Assembly (NCBI GenBank): GCA_945787105.1
Contig: CALZGZ010000120.1
Location: 3,159-67,158, forward strand
DNA length: 64,000 nucleotides
Direction of reading: 5' to 3'
Source: an uncultured Gammaproteobacteria bacterium
GTDB lineage: Bacteria > Pseudomonadota > Gammaproteobacteria > Arenicellales > JAANXG01
The first letter of the stretch is position 1. Each line of letters starts with the position of its first letter. The notes beneath the pieces were generated by a model. The model saw only the letters and a program-made list of their open reading frames with translations, did not search any database and had not been told where the DNA came from. The position numbers were made by a program, and so were the translations under genes. Shown in pieces: positions 1-49,364 of the stretch.

Positions 1-2065
1 GTGGTTGCGCCTGATTGTGCAGATATTGGACGAAGTAGCTGCCGGTAACGTAACCTGGTTCTATGCTTGCCTGAATCTGATTGCGCGCGAAGTGGGCCGC
101 CAAGGCCTGGCGCCCGCACTCATGGCTCTGCGCGGCGGCGAAGTGTTTCGTGTTTGCAGGGTCACGATGGTACAGCACATCCGCGATGTGCCCGATGCTT
201 GCTTCCCCGAATTGGTCGAGGACTTTCAGTGTGAGATCATAAGTCTCACAGCCATTGACAGCGCCTATGCCCCCCAAGTCACGCCACGTATCGGCGCGTA
301 TGAGACAAAAGCGGCCTAGGTAAGGCACTGACCTCAACAGGTCCAAATTGAAATCGGGTTTAAACCTGGGATTATGGCGTTTGCCATCCACGTCGATTTC
401 ATCCTCATCCGTGTAAATGAGCCGCCAGTGCCGATGTAGGTCCATATACGCGGCACAGGTCATCAGCGAATGCGGAGACAAGCGGTCTCCGGGATCGAGA
501 ACTGCTACCCAGTTGCTCTTGGTTCTCTCCACGATGCGGTTTATGGCGCCTACTGGATCACCATGGTGAATGATGCTGCGCACCCGCTTGTGCGGCGCGT
601 CCGCCCGGCGGCGTGCGAATGCGCAGATGACGGTCAAGCGCCAGTTCTCGTATAGCTGGCCGCGCAACGACGCTACCGTCCTCGCCACTGCTGCATCGTT
701 TTCGTCCTCAACCACCATGAGCACCTCAATCTTGCGCCGAGACTGGGGCTTTTTTGCCGATCTCCCGGCACGGATCCGTCGATGAGGCTCCGGCCACGCA
801 TGTTTGTCCATCCACAATCGGTACAACTCCACAGAATCCGACTGCCCCGATGCAGCGTTGCGCAAACTCTGTTGGCGTCTTAATCGATCCAGCGTCAACG
901 CTCTGGTCTGCTGCACGGTGGCGTCAGTAACGGCATAGCGTCGGTAGATCTCTGCATACGGATCGGGAGATTCGTGTTCCGCGGCATACACCGGCTGATG
1001 GATCTCGACAGTGACCCTGGGCATGTGTGTAAACTCGAGCTGTGCGCTGTACCTGAGCAACAAGTCCCAATCTTCGCCAGCAGTTAGTTCTTGATCAAAG
1101 GCCCCCAATGCATCAACGCAAACCCGGCGGTGTGCGCAGGACGTGATCGGAATATAGTTTTGGATCAATAAATTATCCCGACTAAATTCGATACCTTGAA
1201 AGGGCAGATCGGTAAATACCGCAGTCCGTTGCCCATCCTTTACCGCCTCCGTTACCCACCGGGCATCCGTATACACAAAAACCGCTCGCGTCCCCTGCAT
1301 CAGCGCCACCACCGCGGACAGGTGATCCGGAAGATAGAGGTCTGTGGGATTCAAGTAACAGATGATCTCTCCACTGGCTGCATGTATAGCGGCGTTCCTA
1401 TCGGCCGCGGCATTGAAGGGCACACAACGATTGAGATGCAAAACCCGTCTACTGCCGCTGAATTCGGAGCTCGTCGGAACATCCGCACTTTCGTCGCCGA
1501 CGACAATGATCTCCCAGTTTTCATAGTCCTGCGCGAACACCGACCGCAGGGCGTGTCGCAAAAACAGTGCCTGGCCGTGCACAGGGATGACCACAGTGAC
1601 TAGGGGTTGTTCACCAAGCGGTGGCACCGACCTGATTTGGTCACGCGGCGAACGTCGGGACGCGGCCATCGATTTCTCATTACAGGACTGACCTTTGGAT
1701 TCGATCCCGCTAGGTCGTTGTGGTACCGTTTCAGTCGATCGTCGCTTGCGGTAGGCCGTGTGCAGATTCTCCGCGTCCTCGGTCAAACCGAGTTCACGCA
1801 GCAGCGTACACGCGTTGTTCACGAGTTCGGCATGCCCAGAAGATAACTCCAATCCCTGGACAAAGTGTTGCAACGCACGATTCGTGTCACCGAGTTGCAG
1901 AAAACACACGCCGAGGTTATTCAACGTCTCGGGATTCTCGTCATTGATCGCGAATGCGTGTTCAAACTTGACTACGGCTTCGGAAATTTCACCCCGTTCA
2001 AAAAGCAATTCACCTTCACGGTTCAATCGTGAACAGGTTTCTTTTGTCGTTTCGTTATTGTTCAT
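1..2065 (-). CDS. TPR-repeat + family-2 glycosyltransferase multidomain protein (N-terminal ~688 aa; C-terminus runs off the window start)
   Basis: Minus-strand frame is open from ATG at 2065-2063 down to base 1. It is absent from the ORF track, presumably because it has no stop inside the window. My translation gives MNNNETTKETCSRLNREGELLFERGEISEAVVKFEHAFAINDENPETLNNLGVCFLQLGD (TPR-like), then PLVTVVIPVHGQALFLRHALRSVFAQDYENWEIIVVGDES (GT2 signature), then WVAVLDPGDRL...LIYTDEDEIDVDGKRHNPRFKPDFNLDLLRS. I checked the frame at three separate positions (codons at 1603, 370 and 319). The last block parallels aa ~965-1025 of the protein at 28374-33710. Confidence 0.8.
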   Translation of the reverse strand, partial: MNNNETTKETCSRLNREGELLFERGEISEAVVKFEHAFAINDENPETLNNLGVCFLQLGDTNRALQHFVQGLELSSGHAELVNNACTLLRELGLTEDAENLHTAYRKRRSTETVPQRPSGIESKGQSCNEKSMAASRRSPRDQIRSVPPLGEQPLVTVVIPVHGQALFLRHALRSVFAQDYENWEIIVVGDESADVPTSSEFSGSRRVLHLNRCVPFNAAADRNAAIHAASGEIICYLNPTDLYLPDHLSAVVALMQGTRAVFVYTDARWVTEAVKDGQRTAVFTDLPFQGIEFSRDNLLIQNYIPITSCAHRRVCVDALGAFDQELTAGEDWDLLLRYSAQLEFTHMPRVTVEIHQPVYAAEHESPDPYAEIYRRYAVTDATVQQTRALTLDRLRRQQSLRNAASGQSDSVELYRLWMDKHAWPEPHRRIRAGRSAKKPQSRRKIEVLMVVEDENDAAVARTVASLRGQLYENWRLTVICAFARRRADAPHKRVRSIIHHGDPVGAINRIVERTKSNWVAVLDPGDRLSPHSLMTCAAYMDLHRHWRLIYTDEDEIDVDGKRHNPRFKPDFNLDLLRSVPYLGRFCLIRADTWRDLGGIGAVNGCETYDLTLKVLDQFGEASIGHIADVLYHRDPANTKHFAAAQSHECGRQALAAHFARNQIQASIEPGYVTGSYFVQYLHNQAQP

Positions 2066-15989: not shown

Positions 15990-16005
15990 TGGCATGAAGA
16001 TTGCT
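15990..16005 (+). promoter_or_regulatory. candidate sigma54 promoter for the FliK-like gene at 16050
   Basis: TGGCATGAAGATTGCT has correct GG-N10-GC spacing. It ends 45 nt upstream of the ATG. Confidence 0.55.
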
Positions 16006-16993: not shown

Positions 16994-17009
16994 TGGCACA
17001 AATTTTGCT
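16994..17009 (+). promoter_or_regulatory. sigma54 (-24/-12) promoter for flgA
   Basis: TGGCACAAATTTTGCT is an exact fit to TGGCAC-N5-TTGCW, 60 nt upstream of the flgA ATG. Confidence 0.75.
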
Positions 17010-22620: not shown

Positions 22621-23802
22621 ATGGAATCCATATCAAACTCACTCGTCACCCAGCAGCTGCTCACGGTGTCGTCGAACCATGCCCAGCTCCGTGGGCTCGC
22701 GATCGGGCAGCAGCTCACGGGCACCGTTCTCACTGTGGCGCAACAGGGCACGGTTACACTCCAGGTGAACCAATCCACGTTCAACGCACGGACCACCTTA
22801 CCGTTGATTGCCGGTCAGACCCTGACGCTGGTTGTCGACAAGATTGGCCCGGAGATCCGGCTCAGAATACTGGACCAACAACTTCATTCCTCGAGTCTGG
22901 TCCAGGCAATTCGGCAACAACTGCCGAGACAGGGATCGGTCATTATGTTGTTGATGAATCTTCATCGTATCGCGCGTCAAACCGGCGGGATGCGACTACC
23001 CGGTTCGATTACGCAATTGGCCCGCCAGATCACGCAGGGACTGATGGAGGTCAGCGGTTCTTTGTCCGGGGAAATCGTGAAGCAGGCATTGTTGAACAGC
23101 GGTCATTTCCTGGAGCAACGCTTGTCGAAGCTACTTTCCGAGTTGCGTGACGGCACGTTGGAACGCGATTTCAAGGCAGGCCTAATGCGTCTGCGTACGG
23201 CGCTGTCGAGTGCTCTAGAGCAGATCAGGGCCCAATCCGGGCGTCACGAGAAAAAAACCAGCGTGCCTTCACGGCCGGGCCAACAAACGCGAGGGCCGGC
23301 AAATCCCAATCCGGTTTCGGCACGGGAAGCCGCGTCTCTCAAGGCATTGATCGAATTATCGCAACAGGTGGAAAGTGCGCTTGCCCGAATTCAACTGCAT
23401 CAACTCACCTCCTTGATCGAACAGGAGGGCGCGCGGTCCGTTTGGATGCTGGAACTGCCGGTGCGGGATGGCGAAACGGTACAACTCGTGCGTTTTCGTA
23501 TCGAAAAAGAGCAATCGCGGGACGAACAACAGCCAGATGGGTCTTTTTCTATCGTATTTTCGGTCCAATTACAGGCGCTTGGTGGGGTGCAGGCGCGGCT
23601 TACCTTGTCGGGCAGTTCGATTTCGGTGGTGTTGCAGGCGGAGCGCGATGGGACGGTAAAACTTGCCCGGGCCCATCTCGATGACCTGTGCGGACGCCTG
23701 CAGCAAACCGGGCTGACAGCGGAATCTGTCGTGTGTCTGCATGGACTTCATCTCGAGGAAACCCCAGACTTCCATACACCACTGGTGGATATTCAGGCGT
23801 GA
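22621..23802 (+). CDS. FliK-like hook-length-control family protein (second copy, different subfamily)
   Basis: 393 aa. C-terminal VWMLELPVRDGETVQLVRFRI...FSIVFSVQLQALGGVQARLTLSGSSISVVLQAERDGTVKLARAHLDDLCGRLQQTGL resembles the Flg_hook domain. Confidence 0.65.
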   Translation: MESISNSLVTQQLLTVSSNHAQLRGLAIGQQLTGTVLTVAQQGTVTLQVNQSTFNARTTLPLIAGQTLTLVVDKIGPEIRLRILDQQLHSSSLVQAIRQQLPRQGSVIMLLMNLHRIARQTGGMRLPGSITQLARQITQGLMEVSGSLSGEIVKQALLNSGHFLEQRLSKLLSELRDGTLERDFKAGLMRLRTALSSALEQIRAQSGRHEKKTSVPSRPGQQTRGPANPNPVSAREAASLKALIELSQQVESALARIQLHQLTSLIEQEGARSVWMLELPVRDGETVQLVRFRIEKEQSRDEQQPDGSFSIVFSVQLQALGGVQARLTLSGSSISVVLQAERDGTVKLARAHLDDLCGRLQQTGLTAESVVCLHGLHLEETPDFHTPLVDIQA

Positions 23803-25020: not shown

Positions 25021-25036
25021 TGGTACGGAACTTGCA
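25021..25036 (+). promoter_or_regulatory. candidate sigma54 promoter for the sugar-modification/glycosyltransferase operon
   Basis: TGGTACGGAACTTGCA has correct GG-N10-GC spacing and one mismatch to TGGCAC. It ends 41 nt upstream of the only available in-frame start (TTG 25077). Confidence 0.55.
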
Positions 25037-25076: not shown

Positions 25077-26282
25077 TTGGTTCTGCCCGCACCATCGCCG
25101 GCTCATCCTTCGCCACGCCTAGTTGACACCGGTCGCCGGGGCGCCGAGGCGTTTCTAGTCTTTGGCGGGACCAATCTGAGGGCAATTATTGCATTTTGCC
25201 GCGAATTGGAACGGCTGGGGCGGAGTTTTTCGATTATTACCCGCGGCGTAGAAGACGCGTTGCAAAAGACATGCTTCAAGAGCCACATCCATGCAGTGCG
25301 GCGTAAAGACCAGTTGGACTGGACCGATATCTCCCGCGCCATCACCCAGGCTCAACACCAAAGCGGCAAGCATTCCTTTTGTATCTGCCCCTCCTCCGAG
25401 GCGCTCAACCGGTTTTTGCTGGACCATCGCACCGAACTCGCGAAACTCGGATGCACACTGCCGCTCGTGAATGCCGAGACCTATCATCGGATATCCGATA
25501 AGTACAGCTTCCAGTCGATCTGCCAATCCAAAGGACAGCCCGTGCCACGCATGTACTTATCCGTTAATGCTCTCGAATTCCCCTGCGTGGCAAAGCCGTA
25601 TCGGAATCTCGTTGATGGCCGGATTCTGTATCCGGTGATATTGCGCGGCGATACCGACCTTCAGGCGTTCCACCACCAGTGCGATGCAGGAGAGTATTTC
25701 TATCAGGCTTACGTTGCCGGGCCCAGCCACTATCTTTTGTTCTATGTCCGGCGGGACGGAAGCGATGTCCGGTTTTCGCAGGAGAATCTGTTGCAACAGG
25801 CCGGAGGTAAATCGATCGTCATGGCGCGCAGCGCGAATCTGCATCAAGCGCCCATCGCCGAAAGCTACAAGTCCATATTAATCGGACTCGAATTTCACGG
25901 CCTGATAATGATCGAACTGAAAGGAGGCGGCGGTCACTATACGATGATCGAGGCCAACCCGAGGTTGTGGGGACCGCTGCAATTGTCAATGGACGGCGGT
26001 AGCAATCTCGTGCGGGCTTTCATACAGGATCAGTTGGCTGTCCGCGCAATGAGTTCGGGGGCCACCGATATCCGCAGCGCGCGATATTTCTGGCTGGGCG
26101 GCGTACTGCAAAACCTGCTATCACAACATGCTCTGCAGAAACACCCTGATAATCGTCGGCTGCGCTTTTCGGACATTGCTTGTGGCGTGTGCTCCGATAT
26201 CTACCTGCGTCCGGGCACCGCGCGATTATTTCTTCACGAGATCATCCACACGTTCACGATGCGAAGACGGAGGGAAATATGA
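25077..26282 (+). CDS. ATP-grasp fold ligase-like protein
   Basis: 401 aa. N-terminal Rossmann-like FLVFGGTNLRAIIAFCREL; central PCVAKPY...YFYQAYVAG...HGLIMIELKGGGGHYTMIEANPRLWG resembles ATP-grasp. TTG start with a weak RBS. Confidence 0.65.
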   Translation: MVLPAPSPAHPSPRLVDTGRRGAEAFLVFGGTNLRAIIAFCRELERLGRSFSIITRGVEDALQKTCFKSHIHAVRRKDQLDWTDISRAITQAQHQSGKHSFCICPSSEALNRFLLDHRTELAKLGCTLPLVNAETYHRISDKYSFQSICQSKGQPVPRMYLSVNALEFPCVAKPYRNLVDGRILYPVILRGDTDLQAFHHQCDAGEYFYQAYVAGPSHYLLFYVRRDGSDVRFSQENLLQQAGGKSIVMARSANLHQAPIAESYKSILIGLEFHGLIMIELKGGGGHYTMIEANPRLWGPLQLSMDGGSNLVRAFIQDQLAVRAMSSGATDIRSARYFWLGGVLQNLLSQHALQKHPDNRRLRFSDIACGVCSDIYLRPGTARLFLHEIIHTFTMRRRREI

Positions 26283-27154
26283 GGGCGGCGACCGACCTGA
26301 TAACGGAGTTGCGTGCGCTGTACTTCGATGGATCGAAACACACCTCGTATCAGAACGTGCCCGCCTTCGTTGAGGACGCGTTAGGCTTTCAGGTTTCGAT
26401 TGATGAGTGCTGGCGCAGTGACAAACCCCGCTACCGGTATCTGTTGGAACATTGTCCCCCGCAACCTGGTGAGCACGTCATCGACATCGGGGCAAATACC
26501 GGCTATTTCGCACTGAGCCTTGCACAACGCTTTACAAAGTGCCGCTTCACTGCTTACGAGTTCCATCCACAACACGTGGGATTCATGAGGCTTGTGCGCA
26601 TCGCATTTCAGCTGCACAACCTCGAAATCGAACCGAAACCGGTCAAGGTGGCGGATTCACACCGTCTGCCGCCCTACGATCTGGTGCTGTTTATGAACGT
26701 ATTGCACCACCTGGGTTGCGACTTCGACATCGACGTCGGGCGGAGCAACGACGAGTTCCGGGAAATGGCGGTGGCGATGCTAGGCGGTTTGAGGCAAGCG
26801 GGAAACCGAATGCTATTTCAGATGGGCACGAATCGTGGGGGGGATAAGTCCAATCCGATTGTCGACGCCCGAGACGAACCGCGCAAACTCGCCTATCTTA
26901 CCGACCTGCTCCTGGCCGCCGGGTGGGACATTGACCACATCGCCTTTGCACAAAAGCTCCCAGACGGTGACATCCGATTTCGAAACCTTCCGCGGACCCT
27001 GATCAAAGAAATCTGCGACCGGGCTCGCTCGTCCTCGGCAATCACTGCGAAGACCTTGCACGCACGAGCACCGTGGCTCGACCTGGACTGCTTTCCCGGT
27101 GAGTTTTACCGGCGGCCACTGATCGCATGCCGGGCGGTCGGAGGACCATCGTGA
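26279..27154 (+). CDS. class I SAM-dependent methyltransferase
   Basis: I moved the start to ATG 26279, which forms an ATGA overlap with the upstream stop and has GGAGGG 6 nt upstream. SAM motif VIDIGANTGYFALSLAQ; FMNVLHHL block. Confidence 0.75.
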   Translation: MRAATDLITELRALYFDGSKHTSYQNVPAFVEDALGFQVSIDECWRSDKPRYRYLLEHCPPQPGEHVIDIGANTGYFALSLAQRFTKCRFTAYEFHPQHVGFMRLVRIAFQLHNLEIEPKPVKVADSHRLPPYDLVLFMNVLHHLGCDFDIDVGRSNDEFREMAVAMLGGLRQAGNRMLFQMGTNRGGDKSNPIVDARDEPRKLAYLTDLLLAAGWDIDHIAFAQKLPDGDIRFRNLPRTLIKEICDRARSSSAITAKTLHARAPWLDLDCFPGEFYRRPLIACRAVGGPS

Positions 27155-28377
27155 GCATCAAGCGGCTCACCTTGTTCGGCGGTGATCCGGAATTCAGCCG
27201 CACGCTCCATGTCGGTACGCCAAACATCGGCGACACCAAGCGATTTCTAACGCGGGTCGAAAACCTGCTGAACAGGCGCGTACTCACCAACCGCGGTCCA
27301 CTGGTCCGCGAACTGGAGAGTCGCATGACTGAGCTGCTGAGCGTCAAACACTGCGTAACCATGAGCAACGGTACCGCGGCATTGGAAATCGCCACACGGG
27401 CCCTCAATTTCAAGGGCAACGCAATCGTCCCCGCACTGACGTTTGTCGCCACCGCCCATGCGTTGGAATGGCAACGCGTGCGGCCGATATTCGCGGACAT
27501 CATGCCCACCACACACCATCTGGACCCCCGCTGGATCAGACGCTTGGCCACTTCACTGACCAGCGGTGTCATCCCGGTGAATCTGTGGGGGCGCACCGTG
27601 GACATCGACGCGGTCGTGGCAGAGGCTACTATGCGCGACCTGGCCGTCGTGTTTGACTCCTCTCACGCTTTCGGTTGCACCTACAAGGGAAAGCCAGTCG
27701 GTGGATTCGGCGATGCGGAGATTTTTAGCTTCCACGCCACCAAATTCGTCAACACCTTCGAGGGCGGCGCGGTCACAACTAACGACGACGCGTTGGCGGA
27801 ACGGATCAGGTTGATGCAGAACTTCGGTTTCGCGGATCGCGATGAAGTCATACACGTGGGCATCAATGGAAAAATGAATGAAGTCCAAGCCGCCATGGGT
27901 CTCACGTCGGTAGAGGCAATGAAAGGCTTTATCTCACACAATCACGAGAACTATTGTGCCTATCTCGAGGGCCTCAGATACCTGGACGGTATCAACCTCA
28001 TTGAATATGACGCAGCGGAACGAAACAATTACCAGTACATAGTGATTGAAGTCGATGACGTCGTGACCGGACTACACCGGGACCAACTCATGCAGGTGCT
28101 ACATACCGAGGGCGTGGACGCCAGGCGTTACTTCTACCCGGGGTGTCATCGTATGGAACCCTACCGCTCGCGGCCAAAACCCAATGGCCAGGATCTTAAG
28201 CTGACGGACGAGATGCTTGCTCGCGTTTTGACACTGCCCACCGGGACCGCGGTGACCACGGGTGATATACGTCGCGTCGTTGCGCTGATGCAACGCATAC
28301 ACGAACGGCGAAACGACATCTCCCGCAAACTCGCGAAAAACGACCGCACTACTAGATTGACGAACTCGAGAAGGTGA
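27151..28377 (+). CDS. DegT/DnrJ/EryC1/StrS-family PLP-dependent sugar aminotransferase
   Basis: I moved the start to GTG 27151, which forms a GTGA overlap and has GGAGG 7 nt upstream. SNGTAALEIA and FDSSHAFG...EIFSFHATKFVNTFEGGAV are present, the latter holding the PLP-lysine context. Confidence 0.9.
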   Translation: MSIKRLTLFGGDPEFSRTLHVGTPNIGDTKRFLTRVENLLNRRVLTNRGPLVRELESRMTELLSVKHCVTMSNGTAALEIATRALNFKGNAIVPALTFVATAHALEWQRVRPIFADIMPTTHHLDPRWIRRLATSLTSGVIPVNLWGRTVDIDAVVAEATMRDLAVVFDSSHAFGCTYKGKPVGGFGDAEIFSFHATKFVNTFEGGAVTTNDDALAERIRLMQNFGFADRDEVIHVGINGKMNEVQAAMGLTSVEAMKGFISHNHENYCAYLEGLRYLDGINLIEYDAAERNNYQYIVIEVDDVVTGLHRDQLMQVLHTEGVDARRYFYPGCHRMEPYRSRPKPNGQDLKLTDEMLARVLTLPTGTAVTTGDIRRVVALMQRIHERRNDISRKLAKNDRTTRLTNSRR

Positions 28378-31300
28378 ACGACATGGCAGGTCAAATACTC
28401 GTAACCGTGGTGATTTCGACCTACAACCACGAACATTTCATCGGCCGCTGCATTGAAAGTGTTCAACTGCAGAACGTTTCGCCAATGGAGATCATTATTC
28501 TGGATGACTACTCCTCGGACAACACCCCCGGCGTCATCGAAGATTTCCGATGTGACAAACGAATCACCTACGTAAGAAACCCGGAAAACATCGGACCACG
28601 CCTGAACAACACCCGCGCCCTCGAAGTAGGGAGCGGACGATATCATGTCTGGTTGCATGGGGACGACTACCTGCTCCCCGGCCACCTCGAGCGGATCATC
28701 GGTGGTCTCGAACAACGTCCCGAGTGTTCCCTGGGATACGCGCCGCCGGTGTTTGTCGATGCGGCCGGGGAGACCTTACAAACCCCGGACCATCCCGGCC
28801 GTTCCAAACAGGATTATGCCGGTGGCCGCAATGAACTGGCGTTACTGCTCATTCATGACAACTATATTGTCCCTTCGTCCGTGGTGTTCCGGCGGAGCGA
28901 GTTAAACCGGGTCGGCAACTTCCATCCATCCATACCTGGCGCCGACTGGGACCTGTACACGCGTGTCGCGATACAAAATCCCAATTTCTACTACACGAAC
29001 ACCCTCGGCGTCGGCTATCGTTTTCACCCGGGGCAAGTATCGGTGCAGTTCTACGCCAATACCGATCCGCTCAAGGCACATCTCCATGTGGTAGAACAGG
29101 CCATGTATTCCAAAGCCGCCGGCCGGTTGCAGGGTCGCGAACTGGAGATCCTGGACTATCTCAACCGGCGCATCCAATCCTTTGGCGCGGCGGCCTGGAC
29201 ACAAGACCAAGACATACGCCGCGTCCGGGGAATGCTTGCGCGGCACTCATCAGTGCGAACGCCGGCGGCTGTTGGCCGAACGCCAACGATCAGTATCGTT
29301 ATTCCCTGCTACCGGCAGGCGCAGTACCTGACCGACGCGTTGGACAGCGTACTGGCTCAGGGCTTTGAAGACTGGGAGTGCCTGGTTGTCGATGATGGGA
29401 GTCCGGACGACACGGCGCAGGTAGTGACCAGATTCATTAAAGACCACGGCGAATCCAGAATCCGCTTGATCACCAAATCTAACGGCGGGCTCGCCAGCGC
29501 CCGTAACGCCGGCGCCGCGGAATCCCGCGGCCGCTACATCCTGCCGCTGGATGCTGACGACAAACTGCATCCGGACTACCTTACAGAAACGGTAGCCGTT
29601 CTTGATCGCGACCCTGAGACCGATATCGTTTATGTGGACGAACAGAATTTTGGTTTGGCCGGCCACGTGCATGTCAAAACCCAGGTATCCCTGGAAGCGC
29701 TCAAACAGCACAACGTCCACGACTATTGCAGCCTGTACCGCCGCAAAGTCTGGGAGCAAATCGGCGGATATTCGCCGGCCATGTATCTGGGCGGCGAAGA
29801 CTGGCAATTCTGGCTCGCGGCGTCGGCTCACGGTTTCCGGTCGCACCATCTGCGCAAGCCGCTGTTTTTGTACCGAAACCGCGAGCACACCATGGTCAGC
29901 GAGACCCAGGCACATCTCGGTCTCGTACGTGCACAGCTTGTCCTGCATCATCCAGGGATAGTTGGATCCGGTGAGATTCGCGCTGCAGAAGACACTGTGA
30001 AACGGACCCCGGCCCCACTTCGGGAAAAACTCCGGCAGGCGCTGCTTAAGCATACGGACAATCCTTTGTTGTGCCGGTTCAGCCAGCTGGCCGATGCGGG
30101 CGCACGAGACGCCCCGCTGGAACTGCCGTCACTCATTGATCCGCCGCTGGTTTCGGTCATCGTGACGACCATGGACCGTCCGGAGTTTTTAAAGGACGCG
30201 GTAGACTCGTTGGTGAGGCAAACCTACGAGAATTGGGAGGCGATCATCGTCAACGACGGTGGGGATGATATTGGCGATTGGATTACCACCGCCGATCCAA
30301 CCGGCCGGATTCATTACATTCGACATCCGCAAAATTGTGGGCTGTCGGCGGCACGGAACACCGGCATTTCGCTGTCCTCGGGAGAGATTCTGTGCTACCT
30401 GGACGACGATGACCGTTTGTTTCCGGACCACCTTGAAACCATTGTCGACGCCATGCAGACGAACAATACCAGTCTGGTCTATACCGAGGCCGAGTACGTG
30501 CGGGAACTCATCGAAGACGGCCAGCGCAGAGACCTGTCGCGCACGTCGCCGTATTCGCATATCGATTATTCCTTGGAACGGTTGCATATCGGTAACTTCA
30601 TCCCGGTAAACACCTGGGCCCACCGGCGGGAGCTGATCGCTTACGCCGGGGACTTCGACGTGACGCTCCATGCCCTCGAGGACTGGGACCTGTTGCTGCG
30701 GCTCGCGCGCATTACCACACCTGAGCACATCCCGAGGATCACGGCAGAGGTGCGGCTCCGTCCGGGAACGGTGAACGATAACATGAGCCAAAGAGCGCGC
30801 GGCGACTTACCCGCCCTGCATCGCAAGATCTATGCCCGCTACGCAATGCCGGGAAACCACAATGTGGACCGGCAACGAGAACGAATGCTAAAGCAACTCG
30901 AGACGGATCCGGCACCAACCAAACCCGCTGCAGCCACGCAACACCGCTATGACCAATGGCGGCAACGCCACACGCTAACTGAGAGCCAGGCACAGTACAT
31001 GGCGGAGCGAATGATGCTGACGTGGCAGGTACGGCCAAGCATTCAACTTATCGTCACCCACCAGGCGGGACAGGAGGACGCACTGGCCGACACCCTCGAC
31101 AGCCTGGGCCAGCAGTTGTACAAAGGGTGGGGCCTCAGCGTTGTGTCTCCGTGTCCCTGCCCCGACGACAGCTTCAATCGATTACCCAACCTGGAGTGGG
31201 TGGAGGCGCAAGGCGACCGCATCGCCGGTATAAACGGTGTCGTCGGCGATTCTCAGGCTGACTGGATCGTTCAACTCGACGCAGGCACGCGTTTTTCCCC

Positions 31301-33710
31301 GGACGCACTGTTTCGATGGGTCGATTACATCAATCTGCATCCGCATTGGCAGTTGTTCTACTGTGATGAGGACCGCGTTTCGGCCGATGGGATACACCAT
31401 GACCCGCTGTTCAAACCGGACTTTAACTTGGATCTATTGCGATCGACATCCTATATGGGAGATGTGGTACCAGTGCGACGCGAGTTGCTGGCCCGGCTCG
31501 ACGGCTACGGCAGGAGAACGGGTGCTGGTGTCTACGACATGGCGCTGCGCGTGCTCGATGCCGAGGGCGAGTCGATCATCGGTCACATTCCGGAGGTGTT
31601 GATTCACTGCAGAGACCGCCCGGACCCGCAACGCGACGAACAGACCGTCGCCGAGAATCGGCGTCTCACCGTTGAAGACCATTTGCAGCGCAACCACATC
31701 CGGGCAACCGTTGGCCACAATCTGGTCCCCGGTACGTTCTTCGTCGACTATGCCTTAAGCGAGTCGCCGATGGTGTCGATCATCATCCCCTACGGGGACC
31801 AAATCGACCCATCGCGGTTGTGTCTATCGAGCGTACTCGAAAAGACCGACTATCCCCACTACGAGGTCATCGTGGTCGACGATCGTGGTTCGGATTCGGT
31901 CGCCACAAGCGAAATTGGAATGATCAACCAAAGCGCGCGAAACGTACGCGTGGTGCGGAATCCCGAGCCGGGAGGGATCCCGGCGATGCTCAATTTTGCC
32001 GCGCGCGAGGCGCAGGGAGTGTTCCTATTGCTGTTGGATCCCGGAACCCAAGCCATACATGCCGAATGGTTGGCTCGCATGGTGGCGGTCGCACTACGGC
32101 CCGAAGTCGGCGCGGTGGGCGCCAGACTGGTCGATCTCAATGGCCGTATCAAACAGGCGGGACTCGTACTCGGCATGCAGGACGGCGTGGGCCGCCCGTT
32201 CGCCGGAGCCGACATGCAGGCCGCCGGATACCTGGGACGCCACCAGGTGACGCAGAATTACTCCGCGCTTGAAGCGGGGTGCATGCTTGTCAAGCGTGAT
32301 CAGTTCTTACAGCTCGGCGGCTTGAACGCGCAAGAATTCAAGCAATCGTATTTTGACGCCGATTTCTGCCTACGATTGCAGGACGTGGGATGCAAGTTGG
32401 TGTGGACGCCGTTTGCAACCTTGCTGCACCACGGGACCACGGCGGTGCAGGGACAACCGAGCCCTGCGCACAGCAATACCCTTGCTGCGGAACTCACCGC
32501 CTTCCAGCAGCGTTGGCTAACCAGGCTCGCCAGCGATCCGGCGCACAACCCCAATCTGTCACTGGTGGAACAGACTATGCAAATCGAGGTCGAGCTCGCC
32601 GTTCCGTGGCTCGACAGACATCATCCCCGCCCACGGATCTGGGCCTTCCCGCTCAACGACCAGGGTGTCGGACAGTACCGGGTGCGTCAACCGCTTGACG
32701 CTTTGGATCGTGCGGCGCTCGCCGAGCATGCGTTGTTGCCACCCCACGAAAGGGTCGAAAGGGCACGCGTGCCAACGGTGTGCGAACTCGCCCGGGCCGA
32801 TGCCGATACGTTACTGATTCAACACGGATTCAGTGATCTGTTTCTGCGCTGGCTGCCAAAATATCGTGCACTGGATATCGCGTTTCTGGTATTCGGGTTG
32901 GACGATAACCTGCTCGAGATCCCCGAAACAAACGACCGGCGCGATAAACTACCGGCGGATCTCGAGCGGCGCATTCGGGAGGCCTTGTCCCATTGTCACC
33001 GGCTCATCGTGCCGACAGAACCTCTGGTAGAGGTTTACCGGAGATTCATCGACGACGTTCGCGTCGTTCCCAACCAACTTGAACAATGGCGGTGGCAACA
33101 CCTGCGGCCAGACCGTCGGCCAATGAAGGGCAGCGGCGGAAAGCCGCGCGTGGGCTGGGTCGGCGCCCAGCAGCACCGCGGTGATCTGGCTTTGCTGGCG
33201 CCGGTAATGAAGGCCCTGCACGAGGACGTCGATTGGGTCATGATGGGGATGTGTCCCGCGGCGCTTCGGCGCTACGTGCGCGAATTTCACCAACCTGTGC
33301 CCTATAGCCGTTATCCGGAAAAGCTGTCCTCGTTGAACCTGGATCTGGCCGTGGCGCCCCTGGAAATCAATGTGTTCAACGAATGCAAAAGCGATCTGCG
33401 CATCCTCGAGTACGGGGCGCTCGGCTGGCCGGTCGTTGCCACGGACATACATCCGTACCGTGGTAAACCGGTCACCCGCCTGTCGAATAGCGCAACCTTG
33501 TGGATCGACACGATCCGCGAGCGGATCAATGATCTAGAGGCGCTGGCCGCCGAGGGCAGAGCGCTGCGCGAGTGGGTTCACCAACATCGCTTCCTGGAAC
33601 ATCAGCTCATGCCGTGGTTCGAGGCAATGTTATCTGATGCGGTGCTCGGGCGCTTTCCGATGACTTATGGGAACGAGCAGAATGGTATTCCTTCCGCCGT
33701 GGCAAGATGA
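28374..33710 (+). CDS. giant multi-module glycosyltransferase (five GT2/GT-A-type modules + one GT-B-like C-terminal module)
   Basis: 1778 aa. The GTG start overlaps the aminotransferase stop (GTGA). Repeated GT2 signatures: VVISTYN..ILDDYSSDNT..HGDD; SIVIPCY..VVDDGSPDDT..LDADD; SVIVTTM..IVNDGGDD..LDDDD; LDAG..YCDED..FKPDFNLDLL; SIIIPYG..VVDDRGSD. The C-terminal CKSDLRILEYGALGWPVVATD is GT1/GT4-like. Confidence 0.9.
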   Translation: MNDMAGQILVTVVISTYNHEHFIGRCIESVQLQNVSPMEIIILDDYSSDNTPGVIEDFRCDKRITYVRNPENIGPRLNNTRALEVGSGRYHVWLHGDDYLLPGHLERIIGGLEQRPECSLGYAPPVFVDAAGETLQTPDHPGRSKQDYAGGRNELALLLIHDNYIVPSSVVFRRSELNRVGNFHPSIPGADWDLYTRVAIQNPNFYYTNTLGVGYRFHPGQVSVQFYANTDPLKAHLHVVEQAMYSKAAGRLQGRELEILDYLNRRIQSFGAAAWTQDQDIRRVRGMLARHSSVRTPAAVGRTPTISIVIPCYRQAQYLTDALDSVLAQGFEDWECLVVDDGSPDDTAQVVTRFIKDHGESRIRLITKSNGGLASARNAGAAESRGRYILPLDADDKLHPDYLTETVAVLDRDPETDIVYVDEQNFGLAGHVHVKTQVSLEALKQHNVHDYCSLYRRKVWEQIGGYSPAMYLGGEDWQFWLAASAHGFRSHHLRKPLFLYRNREHTMVSETQAHLGLVRAQLVLHHPGIVGSGEIRAAEDTVKRTPAPLREKLRQALLKHTDNPLLCRFSQLADAGARDAPLELPSLIDPPLVSVIVTTMDRPEFLKDAVDSLVRQTYENWEAIIVNDGGDDIGDWITTADPTGRIHYIRHPQNCGLSAARNTGISLSSGEILCYLDDDDRLFPDHLETIVDAMQTNNTSLVYTEAEYVRELIEDGQRRDLSRTSPYSHIDYSLERLHIGNFIPVNTWAHRRELIAYAGDFDVTLHALEDWDLLLRLARITTPEHIPRITAEVRLRPGTVNDNMSQRARGDLPALHRKIYARYAMPGNHNVDRQRERMLKQLETDPAPTKPAAATQHRYDQWRQRHTLTESQAQYMAERMMLTWQVRPSIQLIVTHQAGQEDALADTLDSLGQQLYKGWGLSVVSPCPCPDDSFNRLPNLEWVEAQGDRIAGINGVVGDSQADWIVQLDAGTRFSPDALFRWVDYINLHPHWQLFYCDEDRVSADGIHHDPLFKPDFNLDLLRSTSYMGDVVPVRRELLARLDGYGRRTGAGVYDMALRVLDAEGESIIGHIPEVLIHCRDRPDPQRDEQTVAENRRLTVEDHLQRNHIRATVGHNLVPGTFFVDYALSESPMVSIIIPYGDQIDPSRLCLSSVLEKTDYPHYEVIVVDDRGSDSVATSEIGMINQSARNVRVVRNPEPGGIPAMLNFAAREAQGVFLLLLDPGTQAIHAEWLARMVAVALRPEVGAVGARLVDLNGRIKQAGLVLGMQDGVGRPFAGADMQAAGYLGRHQVTQNYSALEAGCMLVKRDQFLQLGGLNAQEFKQSYFDADFCLRLQDVGCKLVWTPFATLLHHGTTAVQGQPSPAHSNTLAAELTAFQQRWLTRLASDPAHNPNLSLVEQTMQIEVELAVPWLDRHHPRPRIWAFPLNDQGVGQYRVRQPLDALDRAALAEHALLPPHERVERARVPTVCELARADADTLLIQHGFSDLFLRWLPKYRALDIAFLVFGLDDNLLEIPETNDRRDKLPADLERRIREALSHCHRLIVPTEPLVEVYRRFIDDVRVVPNQLEQWRWQHLRPDRRPMKGSGGKPRVGWVGAQQHRGDLALLAPVMKALHEDVDWVMMGMCPAALRRYVREFHQPVPYSRYPEKLSSLNLDLAVAPLEINVFNECKSDLRILEYGALGWPVVATDIHPYRGKPVTRLSNSATLWIDTIRERINDLEALAAEGRALREWVHQHRFLEHQLMPWFEAMLSDAVLGRFPMTYGNEQNGIPSAVAR

Positions 33711-33846: not shown

Positions 33847-36324
33847 TTATCTCCCGCGCGCCGCGGCTGTTTGCGGGGACAGTGTGACAAGCTTTTTCTG
33901 ATAGTCAGACCTTGAACGGCTGGTGTTTTTCTCGTAGCTGAACCGTCCGACCATTTGTTGGAGATTGACGGCCGTCTTGGACAGTTCGACGGCCGCCTGC
34001 TGCGCCTGTGTCGCGCCGCTCAGGGTATCTTGTGCAACCTGGCTCACGCTGGTGATGCTGTGGGCGATCTCGGCACTGCCGGTCGCGGCCCCGGCCAATA
34101 CACGCATGATTTCATCGGTTGTTGTCGCCTGCTGCTCCACACCGCTGGCGATACCTTCCTGTATTTCATGGATCTTGCCAATAATTTCGCCGATCTTCTC
34201 TATTGCCTCGACCGCGCTTCGGGTATCCACCTGAATGGCCTCGATCTTTCTGCTGATGTCATCCGTGGCCTGACCGGTTTCCTTGGCCAGGTCCTTCACT
34301 TCGTTGGCCACCACCGCGAACCCCTTTCCGGCCTCGCCGGCGCGGGCGGCCTCGATGGTTGCGTTCAACGCCAGCAGATTGGTCTGTTCGGCGATGGTCG
34401 TGATCATCTTGATGACGTTGCCGATCTCGTTGCTGCTCTCACCCAGCTTCGCCACCGTGGCGTTGGCGGTTCTTGCGATCTCGACCCCCTGGGTCGCGAC
34501 ACTGGAAGCTGCGTCGGCGCTATCAGCCACAACTCGGATGCTGGCATTCATCTGTTCCGCCGCCGCGGCCACGGTCTCCACGCTGTTGCTCACCTCTCCG
34601 GCAGCCGCCGACACCGCACTCGCCCGATCGGAGGTCGTCTCCGCGTTGTCACTGATCTGCTGTCCGATCGAGGTCAACTGTTCCGATGATGCGGTAAGTC
34701 CCTGGGCATTCAGCGCGATGGTGCCGATGTTGTGTCGTAGTTCCGTTAGAAATCCTTGCAAACCATCTCCCATCTGACCAATTGCGTCCGAACCCAGCAC
34801 CTTTACTTCTTTGGTCAGATCGCCCTTTGCCGCGGCACTGACCACGGAAAGCAATTGATCCACCTTGCTGCGCAGCTTGGCGTTGTTCTGCTCCAGAGCC
34901 ATGGATTGCGTTACCGCCCGCAGACTTACGCCTATATGCACCGCAGCGTGTTTGAGAAAACGTTTTTCCGCCTCACTCGGATCAGCCGCAAACATAAGCA
35001 TCAGTGTGACGGTTTGATTGTCGTCCGGATTCAGCACACTGGTATAGATCTTCTGACCCGAGGCGTGTCCCCGAATTTCCGTCCACTGACCATCACCGTG
35101 GCTCGATACCTCATTCGAAGTACCAACTTCGCCGACCAGCGCGTCGTCACCGTCGCCGTACACCGCCAGTACTGAAGTTTCGTCACCCACCCGGCGTCGC
35201 ACCCAGGCCCCGACCAGGTCGAGCCGTTCATACAAGAACCCGACAGCCTGGTCGAGGAGTTCCTCAATCTGCGCTTCTTCCTGTATCGCTTCCGCTATGA
35301 GACGCAGACTCTCGTTCGTCCAGTTTTCCTGCTCAGCCTGCGCCTGCGCCTTCCGGGCTATCTCGGTCTGCGCCTTTCCCTCACTAACGAGCTTGGCCAG
35401 GTTTCTTCCCATCCGTCCCACCGCCTCCGCGACACCACCGATTTTATCCTTGGAGGTCACCTCGATATGTGCGTCAAGGTCCCCGTCGGCAATGCGTTTT
35501 GCGTATGCCACCACGCGACCCAGACGCCGGTCCAGTAACCGGTATAGCAACAGCATAGCGGCTACGACCACGAGGAGATTAACACCGAGACTCCAACCCG
35601 CACCGTGCTCGACATTACGGAGTATGGCGTGTTGCGCCGCCACGTTGTGGCGCGCTTTGGAAGTGTTTGCCGACGCGAGGTGGGTCCAGCGTTTACTTTC
35701 GGCCTCCAATTGCGTCGCGGCCTGCCTGATGGTCGACTGCAACTGTTGCTGCATATCCTCGGCGTCGTAAAGTAAATCGAACCGTTCATTGTGATCCTCA
35801 GTCGCCAGCAGCTCGTCGGTCATCATCACCATCACCCTGGTATATTCCTTGAGGTCCGCCAGCAACTTCTCTGACATTAGGCTATCGTCGACCAAATCAA
35901 GCGCCTGCAACGTCTGCTGGATCTTGCCTGAGGCAGTGGCCAAAGCCTCGGGGTCACGGTCGGTGTCGATCACCAACATCTCAAATTCAAAGCCATGGAA
36001 TTGCACTGCGTGCTTGAGGTGGTTCAATGACCGCATCATCGGCAGCAAAGCCTGACCCAGCTTACCTACGTTGCGATCGGTCTTCTCGATCAATTCGAGG
36101 TTTTCCCTGGCGTGTTTAGAGGCTTCATCGAGTTTGGTGGCAACATACAGACCACCCACCACGGCGATTAACACCATCACAAACAGGGCAGCACCGATTG
36201 ACCAGGTGACGGCGACTCCCCTTTTGGTTCCGTGAGCCGGCGCGCCGGCATTGATTGGGGCTTTTGCAGGCGCGGTCTCGATGACTTCCTTTGTTTCCGC
36301 TTCGGCTGTGTTTCGATCAGTCAC
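33847..36324 (-). CDS. methyl-accepting chemotaxis protein (periplasmic helical domain, HAMP, cytoplasmic GAF-like insert, MCP signalling domain)
   Basis: 825 aa. Two TM segments flank a helical region of ~200 aa. HAMP (IADGDLDAHIEVTSKDKIGGVAEAVGRM). Hairpin-tip block [35 protein letters not shown]. Confidence 0.9.
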   Translation of the reverse strand: MTDRNTAEAETKEVIETAPAKAPINAGAPAHGTKRGVAVTWSIGAALFVMVLIAVVGGLYVATKLDEASKHARENLELIEKTDRNVGKLGQALLPMMRSLNHLKHAVQFHGFEFEMLVIDTDRDPEALATASGKIQQTLQALDLVDDSLMSEKLLADLKEYTRVMVMMTDELLATEDHNERFDLLYDAEDMQQQLQSTIRQAATQLEAESKRWTHLASANTSKARHNVAAQHAILRNVEHGAGWSLGVNLLVVVAAMLLLYRLLDRRLGRVVAYAKRIADGDLDAHIEVTSKDKIGGVAEAVGRMGRNLAKLVSEGKAQTEIARKAQAQAEQENWTNESLRLIAEAIQEEAQIEELLDQAVGFLYERLDLVGAWVRRRVGDETSVLAVYGDGDDALVGEVGTSNEVSSHGDGQWTEIRGHASGQKIYTSVLNPDDNQTVTLMLMFAADPSEAEKRFLKHAAVHIGVSLRAVTQSMALEQNNAKLRSKVDQLLSVVSAAAKGDLTKEVKVLGSDAIGQMGDGLQGFLTELRHNIGTIALNAQGLTASSEQLTSIGQQISDNAETTSDRASAVSAAAGEVSNSVETVAAAAEQMNASIRVVADSADAASSVATQGVEIARTANATVAKLGESSNEIGNVIKMITTIAEQTNLLALNATIEAARAGEAGKGFAVVANEVKDLAKETGQATDDISRKIEAIQVDTRSAVEAIEKIGEIIGKIHEIQEGIASGVEQQATTTDEIMRVLAGAATGSAEIAHSITSVSQVAQDTLSGATQAQQAAVELSKTAVNLQQMVGRFSYEKNTSRSRSDYQKKLVTLSPQTAAARGR

Positions 36325-36338
36325 GGGGAGATCCGCTG

Positions 36339-37202
36339 TTAGAATTGGAATACCAGGTTGTCTGAGACCGTGTGGTCATCGTCGGCCGAGTGGTCGTAAA
36401 TGGCGATGCCGCCGACCAGCGTGCCACTGGTTGGAAATACGACGTCGTCCGGGTGACCGGTGTCGCGCTTGCGGCGGATCTCCAAACACCATTTGCCGTT
36501 TTGCCACTTCCCTTTGACCTTGACGTCGGCTACCGAACCCTGCGGGTCATTGGCAAGCAAATACTTGGGCATCACGTCTTTCTCGAACTTGGCGTAACGC
36601 TTGGTCGTGTACAACTTGTCCCCGGCGTCGCTGGGACGCGATATATAGACCTTTGCGCCGTTGGCACCGGGAAAATCCCGCGACTTCGTCAGCTTCTTGG
36701 TGCTGATGAACGTCTGTTTATCGTGAATCAGGCCCAGGGGATTGGAGCGCACAGACTTCCAATGCCACATGTCGGCCTTGTACTCCTTGCCCGACAGCCA
36801 GTCGGTCGAATACTCCCCGTCCATCACGAACTGCATTGCGAAACGGTCCTCGCGCTGGGGCCCCGCGACGTATTTGCCTGTTTCCTTGTCCCACACCCAC
36901 GGTTTGTGGACCTTGTCTTCGCTGGAGTCCTCCCACTCAACCAAGAAATAGACATAGTCGCGGTGTAAGCCGCCCTTTACATCGACGCTGTTCACCGCGG
37001 TGGTTACGCCGGACCTGCTCGGCTTAAGCGCGACGCGGGTGACCGGCACATCCGCCCACTCCTTGCCGTCTCCGTCCAGCGCCGGTTCGGACGTCAGCGC
37101 ATGCATGGTGACGGTTGTGGCCACCGCATCCGCCGCCGGCGCCAAAGTGGACGAAAATCCCAAAATCAAACAAATGGTAAAGCTGCTTCGCATCGTAGAC
37201 AT
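36339..37202 (-). CDS. secreted EB_dh/DOMON-like (ethylbenzene-dehydrogenase gamma-like, putative haem- or ligand-binding) protein
   Basis: 287 aa. Signal peptide MSTMRSSFTICLILGFSSTLAPAADA. The blocks LDGDGKEWADVP, EDRFAMQF and ADMWHWKSVRSNPLG resemble my memory of the EB_dh family. Ends 14 nt before the MCP start. Confidence 0.6.
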   Translation of the reverse strand: MSTMRSSFTICLILGFSSTLAPAADAVATTVTMHALTSEPALDGDGKEWADVPVTRVALKPSRSGVTTAVNSVDVKGGLHRDYVYFLVEWEDSSEDKVHKPWVWDKETGKYVAGPQREDRFAMQFVMDGEYSTDWLSGKEYKADMWHWKSVRSNPLGLIHDKQTFISTKKLTKSRDFPGANGAKVYISRPSDAGDKLYTTKRYAKFEKDVMPKYLLANDPQGSVADVKVKGKWQNGKWCLEIRRKRDTGHPDDVVFPTSGTLVGGIAIYDHSADDDHTVSDNLVFQF

Positions 37203-37697: not shown

Positions 37698-39008
37698 ATG
37701 CGTCAGGCTAGAGCGCCCGCATCATCCAACGAGGCGCATGCGCCACATACCCTCGATCAGGCAGAATCCATTACCGGTGCGGATACCGCAACCATACGGC
37801 GATTCAAGCAGTTCGCGGTACTTTCGGATTCGGCGCTTACTGCAATCGCTGCGCAGTCGGTGGTCGAGAAGATACCGGCGGGACAGCAACTGATGGAAAT
37901 CGGAACCCGCGGAGACTCGGTCTTGTTTCTGTTAACGGGGCGCTTGGAGATGACCTCCGCGAACGGCGCGCCACACGAGATCGAGGGTAGTAGCGCTGAA
38001 GCCGATTACGCGATCTCGTATCTGCAACCACACCGTTATACGGTCACTACCAGCTCGCCCGCGGTGATCCTGCGCGTCAACCGCACCACCTTGGAAAAGT
38101 ATGTCAACGAACGGAATTCCTCCACCTACGACGTCGAGGAGATCGAAGCTGGTGAACAACTCCGCGACAGCCTGTTGTTTCATGAGTTGTACGAAGGTTG
38201 CCGCTCCGATCGCTTGAGGTTGCCGAGTCTGCCGGATATCGCCTTCAAGGTTCGAAAGGCATTCGAAAATAAGCGCTCGGATTTGTGGAGCATCGCGTTG
38301 ATCATCGACTCTGATCCGGCCATCGCGGCAAAGTTAATCCGGGTGGCGAACAGCGCCAACTATCGCGGAGAAAATCCGGCCGACACCACGACCGGGGCAG
38401 TCATCCGCCTGGGCGCGGCGACAACCAAAGAACTGGTCATGAGCTTTGCTATGCGTGAGCTCTTCAACACCCGCTCCGCAACGCTCAATCAGCGCATGCA
38501 CAGTCTATGGAAACACAGTATCGATATAGCGGCGACGTGTTTTGTGGTCGCCGGCAGAACCGCTGATTTCGAGCCGGAAACCGCGTTACTCGCCGGCTTG
38601 CTCGAGTATATCGGCGCCATAGCAATCATCAGCTATGCGGAGAAGTATCCGGAGATCACCGATAACTCAGCCGAGCTCGAGAGAGTAATCAACACGCTGC
38701 ATCCCCATGTCGGTGGGATGATTTTGCATTCCTGGGGATTGCCCGAAAACATTTCCATCGTGCCCGCCGCATCGGAAGACTGGTTCCGGTGCTCAACACA
38801 TACCCCTGATTATTGCGCTCTGGTCATGTTCGCGAAACTGCTCAACCGGCTGCGGCGGGACCAGCATGCGGACGCTCTCCCGCCGATACACGAGTTGCCA
38901 TGCCTGGCGGCCTTGGGTTTCGGCGACTTGACGGTCGAATCCACCTTAGCGATGGCCGCCACGATCAAGGATCAGATCGACAAAATGCGGCGGCTGTTGA
39001 ACACGTAA
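37698..39008 (+). CDS. cyclic-nucleotide-binding-like domain + HDOD domain protein
   Basis: 436 aa. GAAGGAGG Shine-Dalgarno. N-terminal CAP-effector-like IPAGQQLMEIGTRGDSVLFLLTGRLEM. C-terminal HDOD (LPSLPDIAFKVRKAF...DPAIAAKLIRVANSANY...LLEYIGAIAI). Confidence 0.8.
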   Translation: MRQARAPASSNEAHAPHTLDQAESITGADTATIRRFKQFAVLSDSALTAIAAQSVVEKIPAGQQLMEIGTRGDSVLFLLTGRLEMTSANGAPHEIEGSSAEADYAISYLQPHRYTVTTSSPAVILRVNRTTLEKYVNERNSSTYDVEEIEAGEQLRDSLLFHELYEGCRSDRLRLPSLPDIAFKVRKAFENKRSDLWSIALIIDSDPAIAAKLIRVANSANYRGENPADTTTGAVIRLGAATTKELVMSFAMRELFNTRSATLNQRMHSLWKHSIDIAATCFVVAGRTADFEPETALLAGLLEYIGAIAIISYAEKYPEITDNSAELERVINTLHPHVGGMILHSWGLPENISIVPAASEDWFRCSTHTPDYCALVMFAKLLNRLRRDQHADALPPIHELPCLAALGFGDLTVESTLAMAATIKDQIDKMRRLLNT

Positions 39009-44196: not shown

Positions 44197-44347
44197 CTAA
44201 CTTAGACAACGGCATTCATCAATTCTTGAGGCAGCCAGGTGTGCCAGAGAATAATCCAAGCGAAACCGGGGTTTTAAAACAATTGAAAACTCGGGGCCTG
44301 TGTTTGCGTACACACAGTCTCCAACCGATTGGACACAATTAGGTGTA

Positions 44348-49338: not shown

Positions 49339-49364
49339 TTATCGGATACCCAAGGATCACAAAT

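Follow-up and report, generated by a model that had tools for sequence, protein, structure and literature searches.

An uninterrupted open reading frame (ORF) encoding a giant glycosyltransferase (GT) occupies positions 28374..33710 of the plus strand in the stretch of DNA analyzed here, a 64,000-nt window of contig CALZGZ010000120.1 (positions 3,159 to 67,158; assembly GCA_945787105.1) from an uncultured Gammaproteobacteria bacterium. The gene is the last of a four-gene operon that lies within a flagellar/chemotaxis supercluster. Its product combines six domains of glycosyltransferase fold, namely modules M1 to M5 and a C-terminal domain termed C, and adds a large new representative to a known kind of system, the giant glycosyltransferases of flagellin glycosylation islands, the family of which is widespread and little studied. 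The ORF and its modules are as follows.

28374..33710, plus strand: giant glycosyltransferase, whole ORF; 1778 codons from GTG 28374, 1775 aa from ATG 28383
28395..29063, plus strand: M1 (aa 8-230), canonical GT2/GT-A module; PF00535 E 1.5e-23; HGDDY at aa 95-99, DWD at aa 191-193
29283..29903, plus strand: M2 (aa 304-510), canonical GT2 module; PF00535 E 2.1e-34; LDADD at aa 392-396, EDW at aa 475-477
30144..30773, plus strand: M3 (aa 591-800), canonical GT2 module; PF00535 E 1.2e-29; LDDDD at aa 676-680, EDWD at aa 769-772
31035..31748, plus strand: M4 (aa 888-1125), predicted GT-A fold with a degenerate active site; LDAGT at aa 968-972
31767..32453, plus strand: M5 (aa 1132-1360), GT2 module; PF00535 E 2.3e-12; non-canonical DxD, LDPGT at aa 1221-1225
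32631..33653, plus strand: C domain (aa 1420-1760), predicted GT-B (GT4-like) fold; E1670-X8-E1679, RVGWxGxxxH

An earlier note on this DNA, made from the sequence alone, had described the ORF as one 1778-aa chain. The chain is indeed continuous: no stop codon interrupts the 1778 codons counted from the GTG, and the product has 1,775–1,778 residues depending on the start. GTG 28374 overlaps the stop codon of the preceding aminotransferase gene, and that stop lies 5 nt before ATG 28383. The ATG is probably the true start, because a ribosome-binding site, GAGAAGG, is located 8 nt 5' of it and because the public gene call for an identical protein (P0001, 100% identity) begins there and yields 1775 aa. 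The same note had named an assembly chimera as one condition under which its reading would fail. Full-length homologs with 73, 68, 59, and 45% identity are present in four other genomes, are collinear, and carry all six segments in the same order; in addition, the identical protein is recorded on two contigs. The giant GT is therefore not an assembly artifact, and a chimera or frameshift is ruled out. Recent internal duplication of modules is likewise ruled out by the pairwise identity among M1-M5, which is only 23-34%. No membrane segment was found in the protein, the maximum Kyte-Doolittle mean over 19 residues being 1.26.

The count of five GT-A folds and one GT-B fold proposed in the earlier note holds, and its module boundaries were essentially right. 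Pfam places PF00535 at aa 10-~210, 304-510, 591-800, and 1132-1360 (E 2e-12 to 2e-34), with scores of 84 bits for M1, 119 for M2, 104 for M3, and 47.6 for M5 vs. a cut-off of 23.3. By contrast with these four modules, the M4 segment (aa 871-1125) has no Pfam match even at E<=10, and the C-terminal 380 residues yield only a sub-threshold match to Glyco_trans_1_4 (19 bits vs. a cut-off of 27). The M4 and C segments were each aligned with 19 homologs, modeled with AlphaFold2, and compared with known structures by Foldseek. The M4 model has a mean predicted local distance difference test score (pLDDT) of 92.8, and its top match is the chondroitin polymerase K4CP (2z86; E 1e-16, template-modeling (TM) score 0.73), followed by heparosan synthase 2, SpsA (E 1e-12), WrtF, and TarS; a hidden Markov model of the M4 family also finds K4CP by sequence (E 4e-5). 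M4 is thus modeled as a GT-A fold despite the absent Pfam match. For the C domain, a profile search of solved-structure sequences gave no meaningful match (best E ~0.02, to unrelated proteins), so that a fold comparison was needed. The C model (pLDDT 89) has 259 Foldseek matches at E<=1e-3, headed by GlgM, PimB', PglA, and MshA and including BshA (E 4e-12 to 1e-10, TM ~0.6-0.66). The C-terminus is accordingly assigned, by modeled fold, to GT4-like GT-B enzymes, the Pfam GT1-family match being sub-threshold.

The motif states of the modules differ sharply. The earlier note had given every GT-A module a DxD-type motif, which proved correct for M1 (HGDDY), M2 (LDADD), and M3 (LDDDD) but not for M4 (LDAGT) or M5 (LDPGT). 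M1, M2, and M3 retain the DxD together with the acidic ED/DW motif that follows it, the residues concerned being kept in at least 95% of the homologous modules (M1: DD, 24 homologs; M3: 35 homologs). M1-M3 are also the segments with the highest identity to close relatives, 84-86% in the case of P0002, the closest homolog. In M4, LDAGT occupies the position at which K4CP has LDSDD, and Gly replaces the second Asp of the DxD in 76 of 78 relatives; the module also lacks the PxYN motif of β1 and the DD nucleotide motif. Other residues of M4 are nevertheless invariant, including Tyr996/Asp998 (in the C-D-E-D stretch), a Pro, the Asn of KPDFN, and the His of a GH motif. Because these are kept while the nucleotide and metal motifs are lost, M4 appears to be under selection, though not as a canonical GT, and is a probable pseudo-glycosyltransferase.

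M5 presents a different picture. About a third of relatives have lost its DxD, while 51 of 78 keep [DN]x[DE], mostly as NND. In the clade of the giant GT, M5 is the fastest-evolving module: its identity to P0002 is 54% vs. 73-86% for the other modules, which suggests relaxed constraint. No significant association between M5 degeneracy and the number of upstream GT2 modules was detected (Mann-Whitney p 0.55 and 0.82; Fisher p 0.48), although the four sampled relatives that combine at least three upstream modules with an M5 lacking [DN]x[DE] all agree with such a link. The GT-B domain is the hallmark of the family and its best and most widely conserved domain, with 36 invariant columns, including RVGWxGxxxH, among 20 sequences of 37-70% identity. 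In the C-domain alignment E1679 is invariant and E1670 is at least 90% conserved; the two are separated by eight residues (EX8E) rather than by the seven of the EX7E motif reported earlier. Taken together, three to five of the six domains are probably catalytically active. Six catalytic-type domains making a complete oligosaccharide, as the earlier note had it, is an overcount, given that M4 is degenerate at all nucleotide and metal motifs family-wide and that the DxD of M5 is lost in the clade.

At the sequence level, the family is built on a tri-domain C-terminal core, M4 (degenerate GT-A) – M5 (GT2) – C (GT4-like GT-B). This core terminates 78 of 87 related ORFs, as it does the giant GT, in which it is preceded by the three canonical inverting-type GT2 modules M1-M3. 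When the six segments were mapped onto database matches, the cassette GT2-M4-M5-C was found in 36 cluster representatives, with M3 of the giant GT corresponding to its first module. The additions at the N-terminus vary among relatives and include extra GT2 modules, methyltransferases, tetratricopeptide repeats (TPRs), and a sulfotransferase. Searched against 1.84 billion cluster representatives, a profile of the C domain retrieves 1,904 at E<=1e-30, nearly all with the domain at the C-terminus of proteins of 1,100-2,500 aa. Scanning the C-domain alignment against one representative genome per species gave at least 554 relatives, the best 79 loci of which were examined for neighbors.

The number of modules in sampled relatives ranges from three to seven, three or four being typical. 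Like the giant GT, its two closest relatives have six modules, as does a protein of one Thiogranum metagenome-assembled genome (MAG). The uniqueness that the earlier note had implied for the six-module architecture is thus not sustained; by its module number, the giant GT is an upper-tail example, neither unique nor a new kind of system. Two larger relatives should be mentioned. A single 2724-aa ORF with seven GT-fold modules (L053:2936-11107) adjoins fliC, as does a 2127-aa ORF of a Thiogranum MAG (L018:4739-11119), in which seven modules include a doubled cassette (M3-M4-M5-C-M4-M5-C).

The second line of evidence is the genomic position of these relatives. Among the 79 loci, all in other species, filament genes are found within 10 kb in 60 and fliC in 59; fliC is separated from the GT gene by a median of 187 nt and by no more than 1 kb in 48 loci. 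The flagellar link claimed in the earlier note is therefore right, and stronger than was claimed. Three relatives, P0035 (P. entomophila, 1470 aa), P0021 (Ectopseudomonas composti, 1697 aa), and P0008 (1475 aa), lie within flgL-fliC glycosylation islands beside DegT aminotransferases. In P. entomophila, a neighboring GT of 1189 aa, encoded next to flgL, shows the GT2-M4-M5-GT-B cassette as well, and its C domain is 39% identical to that of the giant GT (E 6e-69). This GT is kept at ~1186-1190 aa across P. putida, P. fluorescens, P. protegens, and P. chlororaphis, in the slot that is the published position of fgt1 (PMC3402453, PMC3927599). No P. syringae entry occurs among the top 120 homologs of the Fgt1-like protein of P. 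entomophila. Judged by synteny and size, the family of the giant GT probably includes the large Pseudomonas flagellin GTs of the Fgt1/Fgt2/VioT-OrfN type; the accessions for the Fgt1, Fgt2, VioT, and OrfN sequences are AB061230, AB499894, and AF332547 (cited in PMC3927599).

The third line of evidence comes from the operon itself, the other features of which are listed here.

25021..25036, plus strand: sigma-54-type -24/-12 promoter motif, TGGTACGGAACTTGCA, 40 nt upstream of the first operon gene
25077..26282, plus strand: first operon gene, 401 aa, resembling ATP-grasp/carbamoyl-phosphate-synthase proteins by weak matches only
26279..27154, plus strand: S-adenosylmethionine-dependent methyltransferase, 291 aa
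27151..28377, plus strand: DegT-family sugar aminotransferase; PF01041 E 3e-95; DesI model TIGR04427 E 3e-142

The best model for the aminotransferase is DesI (dTDP-4-dehydro-6-deoxyglucose 4-aminotransferase), with 474 bits, which is below the equivalog cut-off of 650 bits; such an enzyme would be predicted to yield a viosamine-type sugar. The 401-aa ATP-grasp-like protein, the gene for which is conserved upstream of the giant-GT homolog in L002 and L006, possibly modifies the sugar. The consensus TGGYAYN5TTGCW has four exact matches in the window vs. 0.25 expected, at 13127-13142 (minus strand), 15990-16005, 16994-17009, and 25021-25036 (plus strand). The three matches other than that of the GT operon precede the flgB operon, a fliK-like gene, and flgA, and all four are located 40-60 nt upstream of an operon start. 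A motif common to the GT operon and three flagellar operons suggests that a sigma-54-driven flagellar hierarchy includes the GT operon. The sigma-28 core GCCGATA is absent upstream of the GT operon and weakly enriched overall (16 vs. 8.6 expected), and scans for sigma-70 promoters and terminators gave nothing informative. No flippase or polymerase (Wzx/Wzy), ABC transporter, or initiating phosphoglycosyltransferase gene is present in the operon or locus of the giant GT. In the genome of the closest relative, a 775-aa protein with weak HAP3-/HAP2-like segments of the Flagellin_IN type is encoded directly after the giant-GT homolog (L002:15905-18232); it is absent at that place in the window.

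The genome encodes a paralog of the giant GT at its flagellin locus.

1..2065, minus strand: TPR-GT paralog, N-terminal 688 of 1311 aa, cut by the window edge; full gene L085:11439-15374

The paralog has the architecture TPR - GT2 (LNPTD at the DxD position) - M4-like - M5-like (canonical LLLNNDT) - GT-B, and its C domain is 48% identical to that of the giant GT. The sharing of a module with the giant GT that the earlier note had noticed is borne out, since the paralog matches both M3 (37% identity, E 5e-46) and M4 (36%, E 1e-46); the gene is on the minus strand. No fliC is found within the window, as it lies just beyond the left edge, where the gene order is flgK-flgL-TPR-GT (1311 aa)-fliC (282 aa)-flaG-fliD-fliS-fliT.

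The folds, motif states, family distribution, synteny, and promoter motif described above are observed, and on this basis we consider it likely that the giant GT is a soluble, cytoplasmic, multi-domain flagellin glycosyltransferase of the Pseudomonas-type family. Nucleotide sugars would serve as its immediate donors, from which it would add sugars to the Ser/Thr-linked glycans of the 282-aa flagellin ahead of export by the flagellar secretion apparatus. Among these sugars would be a methylated or acylated 4-amino-4,6-dideoxyhexose, made by three enzymes that are co-transcribed with the giant GT, namely a DesI/VioA-like aminotransferase, a methyltransferase, and an ATP-grasp-like protein. The TPR paralog, the likelier priming enzyme, would prime flagellin, while the giant GT would elongate and cap the glycan in the cytoplasm. 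We propose this division because the arrangement mirrors the fgt1-fgt2 locus of P. syringae pv. tabaci together with its separate viosamine island. The active sites of the giant GT would be M1-M3 and probably the GT-B domain; M4 would most likely serve as a non-catalytic scaffold or acceptor-binding domain, and M5 is probably inactive, vestigial or non-canonical in this clade. We infer flagellin as the acceptor, as well as the order of action and the identity of the active modules.

The flgL-fliC interval of P. syringae pv. tabaci is occupied by fgt1 and fgt2, the first of which encodes an enzyme that adds rhamnose to Ser (PMC3927599); deletion of fgt1 leaves flagellin non-glycosylated, and that of fgt2 leaves it partly glycosylated (PMC12915359). 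In the genome studied here, the paralog holds the same flgL-fliC slot as Fgt1/Fgt2 of P. syringae pv. tabaci/glycinea, and flagellin is of the same size class. The giant GT differs from Fgt1/Fgt2 and from the ~1,190-aa Pseudomonas GT in its two extra N-terminal GT2 modules, M1 and M2, in its degenerate M5, and in its location, ~25 kb from fliC within a sigma-54 operon of its own. The viosamine island of P. syringae, located apart from flgL-fgt1-fgt2-fliC, encodes the aminotransferase VioA, the methyltransferase VioM, and VioT (1,173 aa), a transferase that adds modified viosamine as the terminal sugar of the rhamnose chain borne by six serines of flagellin (PMC3927599). The giant GT shares with VioT, and with OrfN of P. 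aeruginosa PAK, the combination of a large GT with a viosamine-type aminotransferase and a methyltransferase at a locus apart from flgL-fliC. It is, however, ~600 aa longer than VioT, and the likeness is drawn from gene context only. Unlike the viosamine island, its operon is without acyl-carrier or ketoacyl genes and has the ATP-grasp-like gene instead; for this reason the sugar decoration probably differs from that of the VioT system.

Other multi-domain enzymes are more distant parallels. FgtA (PA1091), which acts on the b-type flagellin of P. aeruginosa PAO1, is also a multi-domain flagellin modifier combining a GT2 with a second activity, and its loss gives non-glycosylated flagellin (PMC11833859), but its GT2 is fused to a phosphotransferase (a CD0244 homolog) and not to further GT modules or a GT-B. 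K4CP, heparosan synthase 2, and the chlorovirus PBCV-1 proteins A111/114R and A064R likewise carry several GT active sites that act successively in one polypeptide; A111/114R, for example, has three GT functions and builds a protein-linked glycan (PMC7826918). These enzymes have two or three modules, all active, and make polysaccharide or viral capsid glycans, none of them flagellar, whereas the family of the giant GT is set apart by its conserved pseudo-GT-A domain. FlmG of Caulobacter and GmaR of Listeria perform direct O-glycosylation of flagellin in the cytoplasm through TPRs coupled to a GT domain (PMC7591256). The TPR paralog resembles them in its N-terminal TPRs; the giant GT, with no TPR and six GT-fold domains, differs from FlmG, in which a single GT domain transfers pseudaminic acid.

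Several points weigh against a flagellin glycosyltransferase. The giant GT is encoded ~25 kb from flgL/fliC and is not adjacent to fliC, while the TPR paralog is; its two closest relatives (L006 and L008) are also without fliC within 10 kb, and 19 of the 79 related loci, including those of Parabeggiatoa and Thiomargarita, have no flagellar neighbor. The likeness to Fgt1, Fgt2, VioT, and OrfN is drawn from gene position and size, not from alignment. We also know of no member of this exact family that has been biochemically characterized domain by domain. As regards the assignment of activities, loss of the DxD is suggestive of inactivity and not proof of it, because WrtF, a GT-A fucosyltransferase among the Foldseek matches of M4, works without metal (PMC12595478).

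The alternatives differ mainly in how many domains they take to be active and in the acceptor. If all six domains were active and each added one sugar, a single polypeptide would produce a hexasaccharide. All six have confident glycosyltransferase folds, the invariant Tyr, Asp, Asn, and His of M4 point to selection, and the example of WrtF demonstrates that a GT-A enzyme can dispense with metal. In our opinion such a line of six stations is improbable nonetheless: M4 lacks P-x-Y-N and DD as well as DxD, with Gly at the second Asp in 76 of 78 relatives, and M5 has DPG where NND/DxD is retained by 65% of relatives and, in this clade, has a much higher rate of evolution than the remaining modules. 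We assign a small probability to the converse possibility, a single-step VioT-like transferase that adds a terminal modified viosamine and in which the remaining modules are vestigial scaffolding. It would account for an operon with an aminotransferase and a methyltransferase, as for VioT (PMC3927599), and for the fact that two of the six modules are already degenerate; moreover, in some relatives with a degenerate M5 and no recognizable upstream GT2, the GT-B is the sole obvious active site. Yet the DxD and ED motifs of M1-M3 are kept in at least 95% of homologs, and the 84-86% identity of these modules to P0002 argues for purifying selection on catalysis.

The acceptor, too, could be another one. 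The giant GT might be a polymerase for a surface polysaccharide (O-antigen, capsule, or exopolysaccharide), similar to K4CP, heparosan synthase, or O-antigen enzymes, its flagellar setting being coincidental. K4CP is the best structural match of M4, every sub-threshold NCBIfam match of the giant GT is to a GT2 enzyme for polysaccharides, ABC-transporter-dependent O-antigen assembly typically employs multi-module GTs (PMC11231755), and the 19 loci without flagellar genes would be in keeping with it. Still, neither the operon nor the protein offers an ABC transporter, Wzx/Wzy, an initiating phosphoglycosyltransferase, or a transmembrane segment; fliC is near 59 of the 79 related loci at a median gap of 187 nt, the paralog is encoded between flgL and fliC, and the sigma-54 motif is common to the GT operon and flagellar operons. 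We regard a polysaccharide polymerase as very improbable.

Returning to a flagellin glycosyltransferase, one elaboration is the most novel but rather unlikely. The family may follow a modular, roughly collinear logic, in which the invariant core M4-M5-GT-B, with the pseudo-GT-A M4 as an acceptor clamp or ruler, would be responsible for flagellin docking and priming, the zero to four N-terminal GT2 modules would be plug-in elongation stations, and paralogs would split the work. Motif loss in the two paralogs is complementary: the TPR paralog has NND in M5 but NPTD in its M3-like module, while the giant GT has DDDD in M3 but DPG in M5. In this modular scheme, the paralogs would divide priming and elongation because their M3 and M5 motifs degenerate in complementary fashion. 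If the scheme is true, the number and order of N-terminal GT2 modules predict the length and sequence of the glycan.

Motility, adhesion to surfaces, and recognition by the immune system are all influenced by the glycans on flagellin. To our knowledge, work on the large GTs of Pseudomonas-type glycosylation islands has relied on genetics and not on the dissection of single domains. The family delineated here is very large, numbering at least 554 loci when one genome per species is scanned and 1,904 clusters at E<=1e-30, and its architecture may offer a way to predict glycan complexity from sequence. A fixed tri-domain core with a conserved pseudo-glycosyltransferase, preceded by a variable train of GT2 modules, is, in our opinion, a more interesting by-product of the analysis than the giant GT itself. 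It should be noted that five loci from Parabeggiatoa, Thiotrichaceae, and Thiomargarita MAGs (L007, L009, L020, L023, and L065) encode core proteins of 1,386-1,498 aa and show no flagellar gene in the flanking sequence covered; substrates other than flagellin are possible for the family in these giant sulfur bacteria.

The remaining genes of the window are largely related to motility. Two FliK-like ORFs with a Flg_hook domain are found on the plus strand, at 16050-16964 and 22621-23802, the second being followed by a small ORF resembling the C-terminal domain of FlhB (Bac_export_2, 95 aa; L001 5417-5704). A PAS-GGDEF-EAL protein and three HDOD proteins, one with a cyclic nucleotide-binding domain, are encoded among the flagellar and chemotaxis genes (18736-21090, 21094-21969, and 43230-44078 on the minus strand and 37698-39008 on the plus strand), which points to dense second-messenger control of motility. 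On the minus strand, at 33847-37202, an 825-aa methyl-accepting chemotaxis protein (MCP) is followed by a protein with an EB_dh domain (ethylbenzene-dehydrogenase-like, heme-binding); the two may form a sensor-accessory pair. Downstream of the flagellar genes, a complete chemotaxis cluster (44300-51357, plus strand) encodes CheA, with two CheW-like domain stretches, a PAS-MCP, CheB, and CheR.

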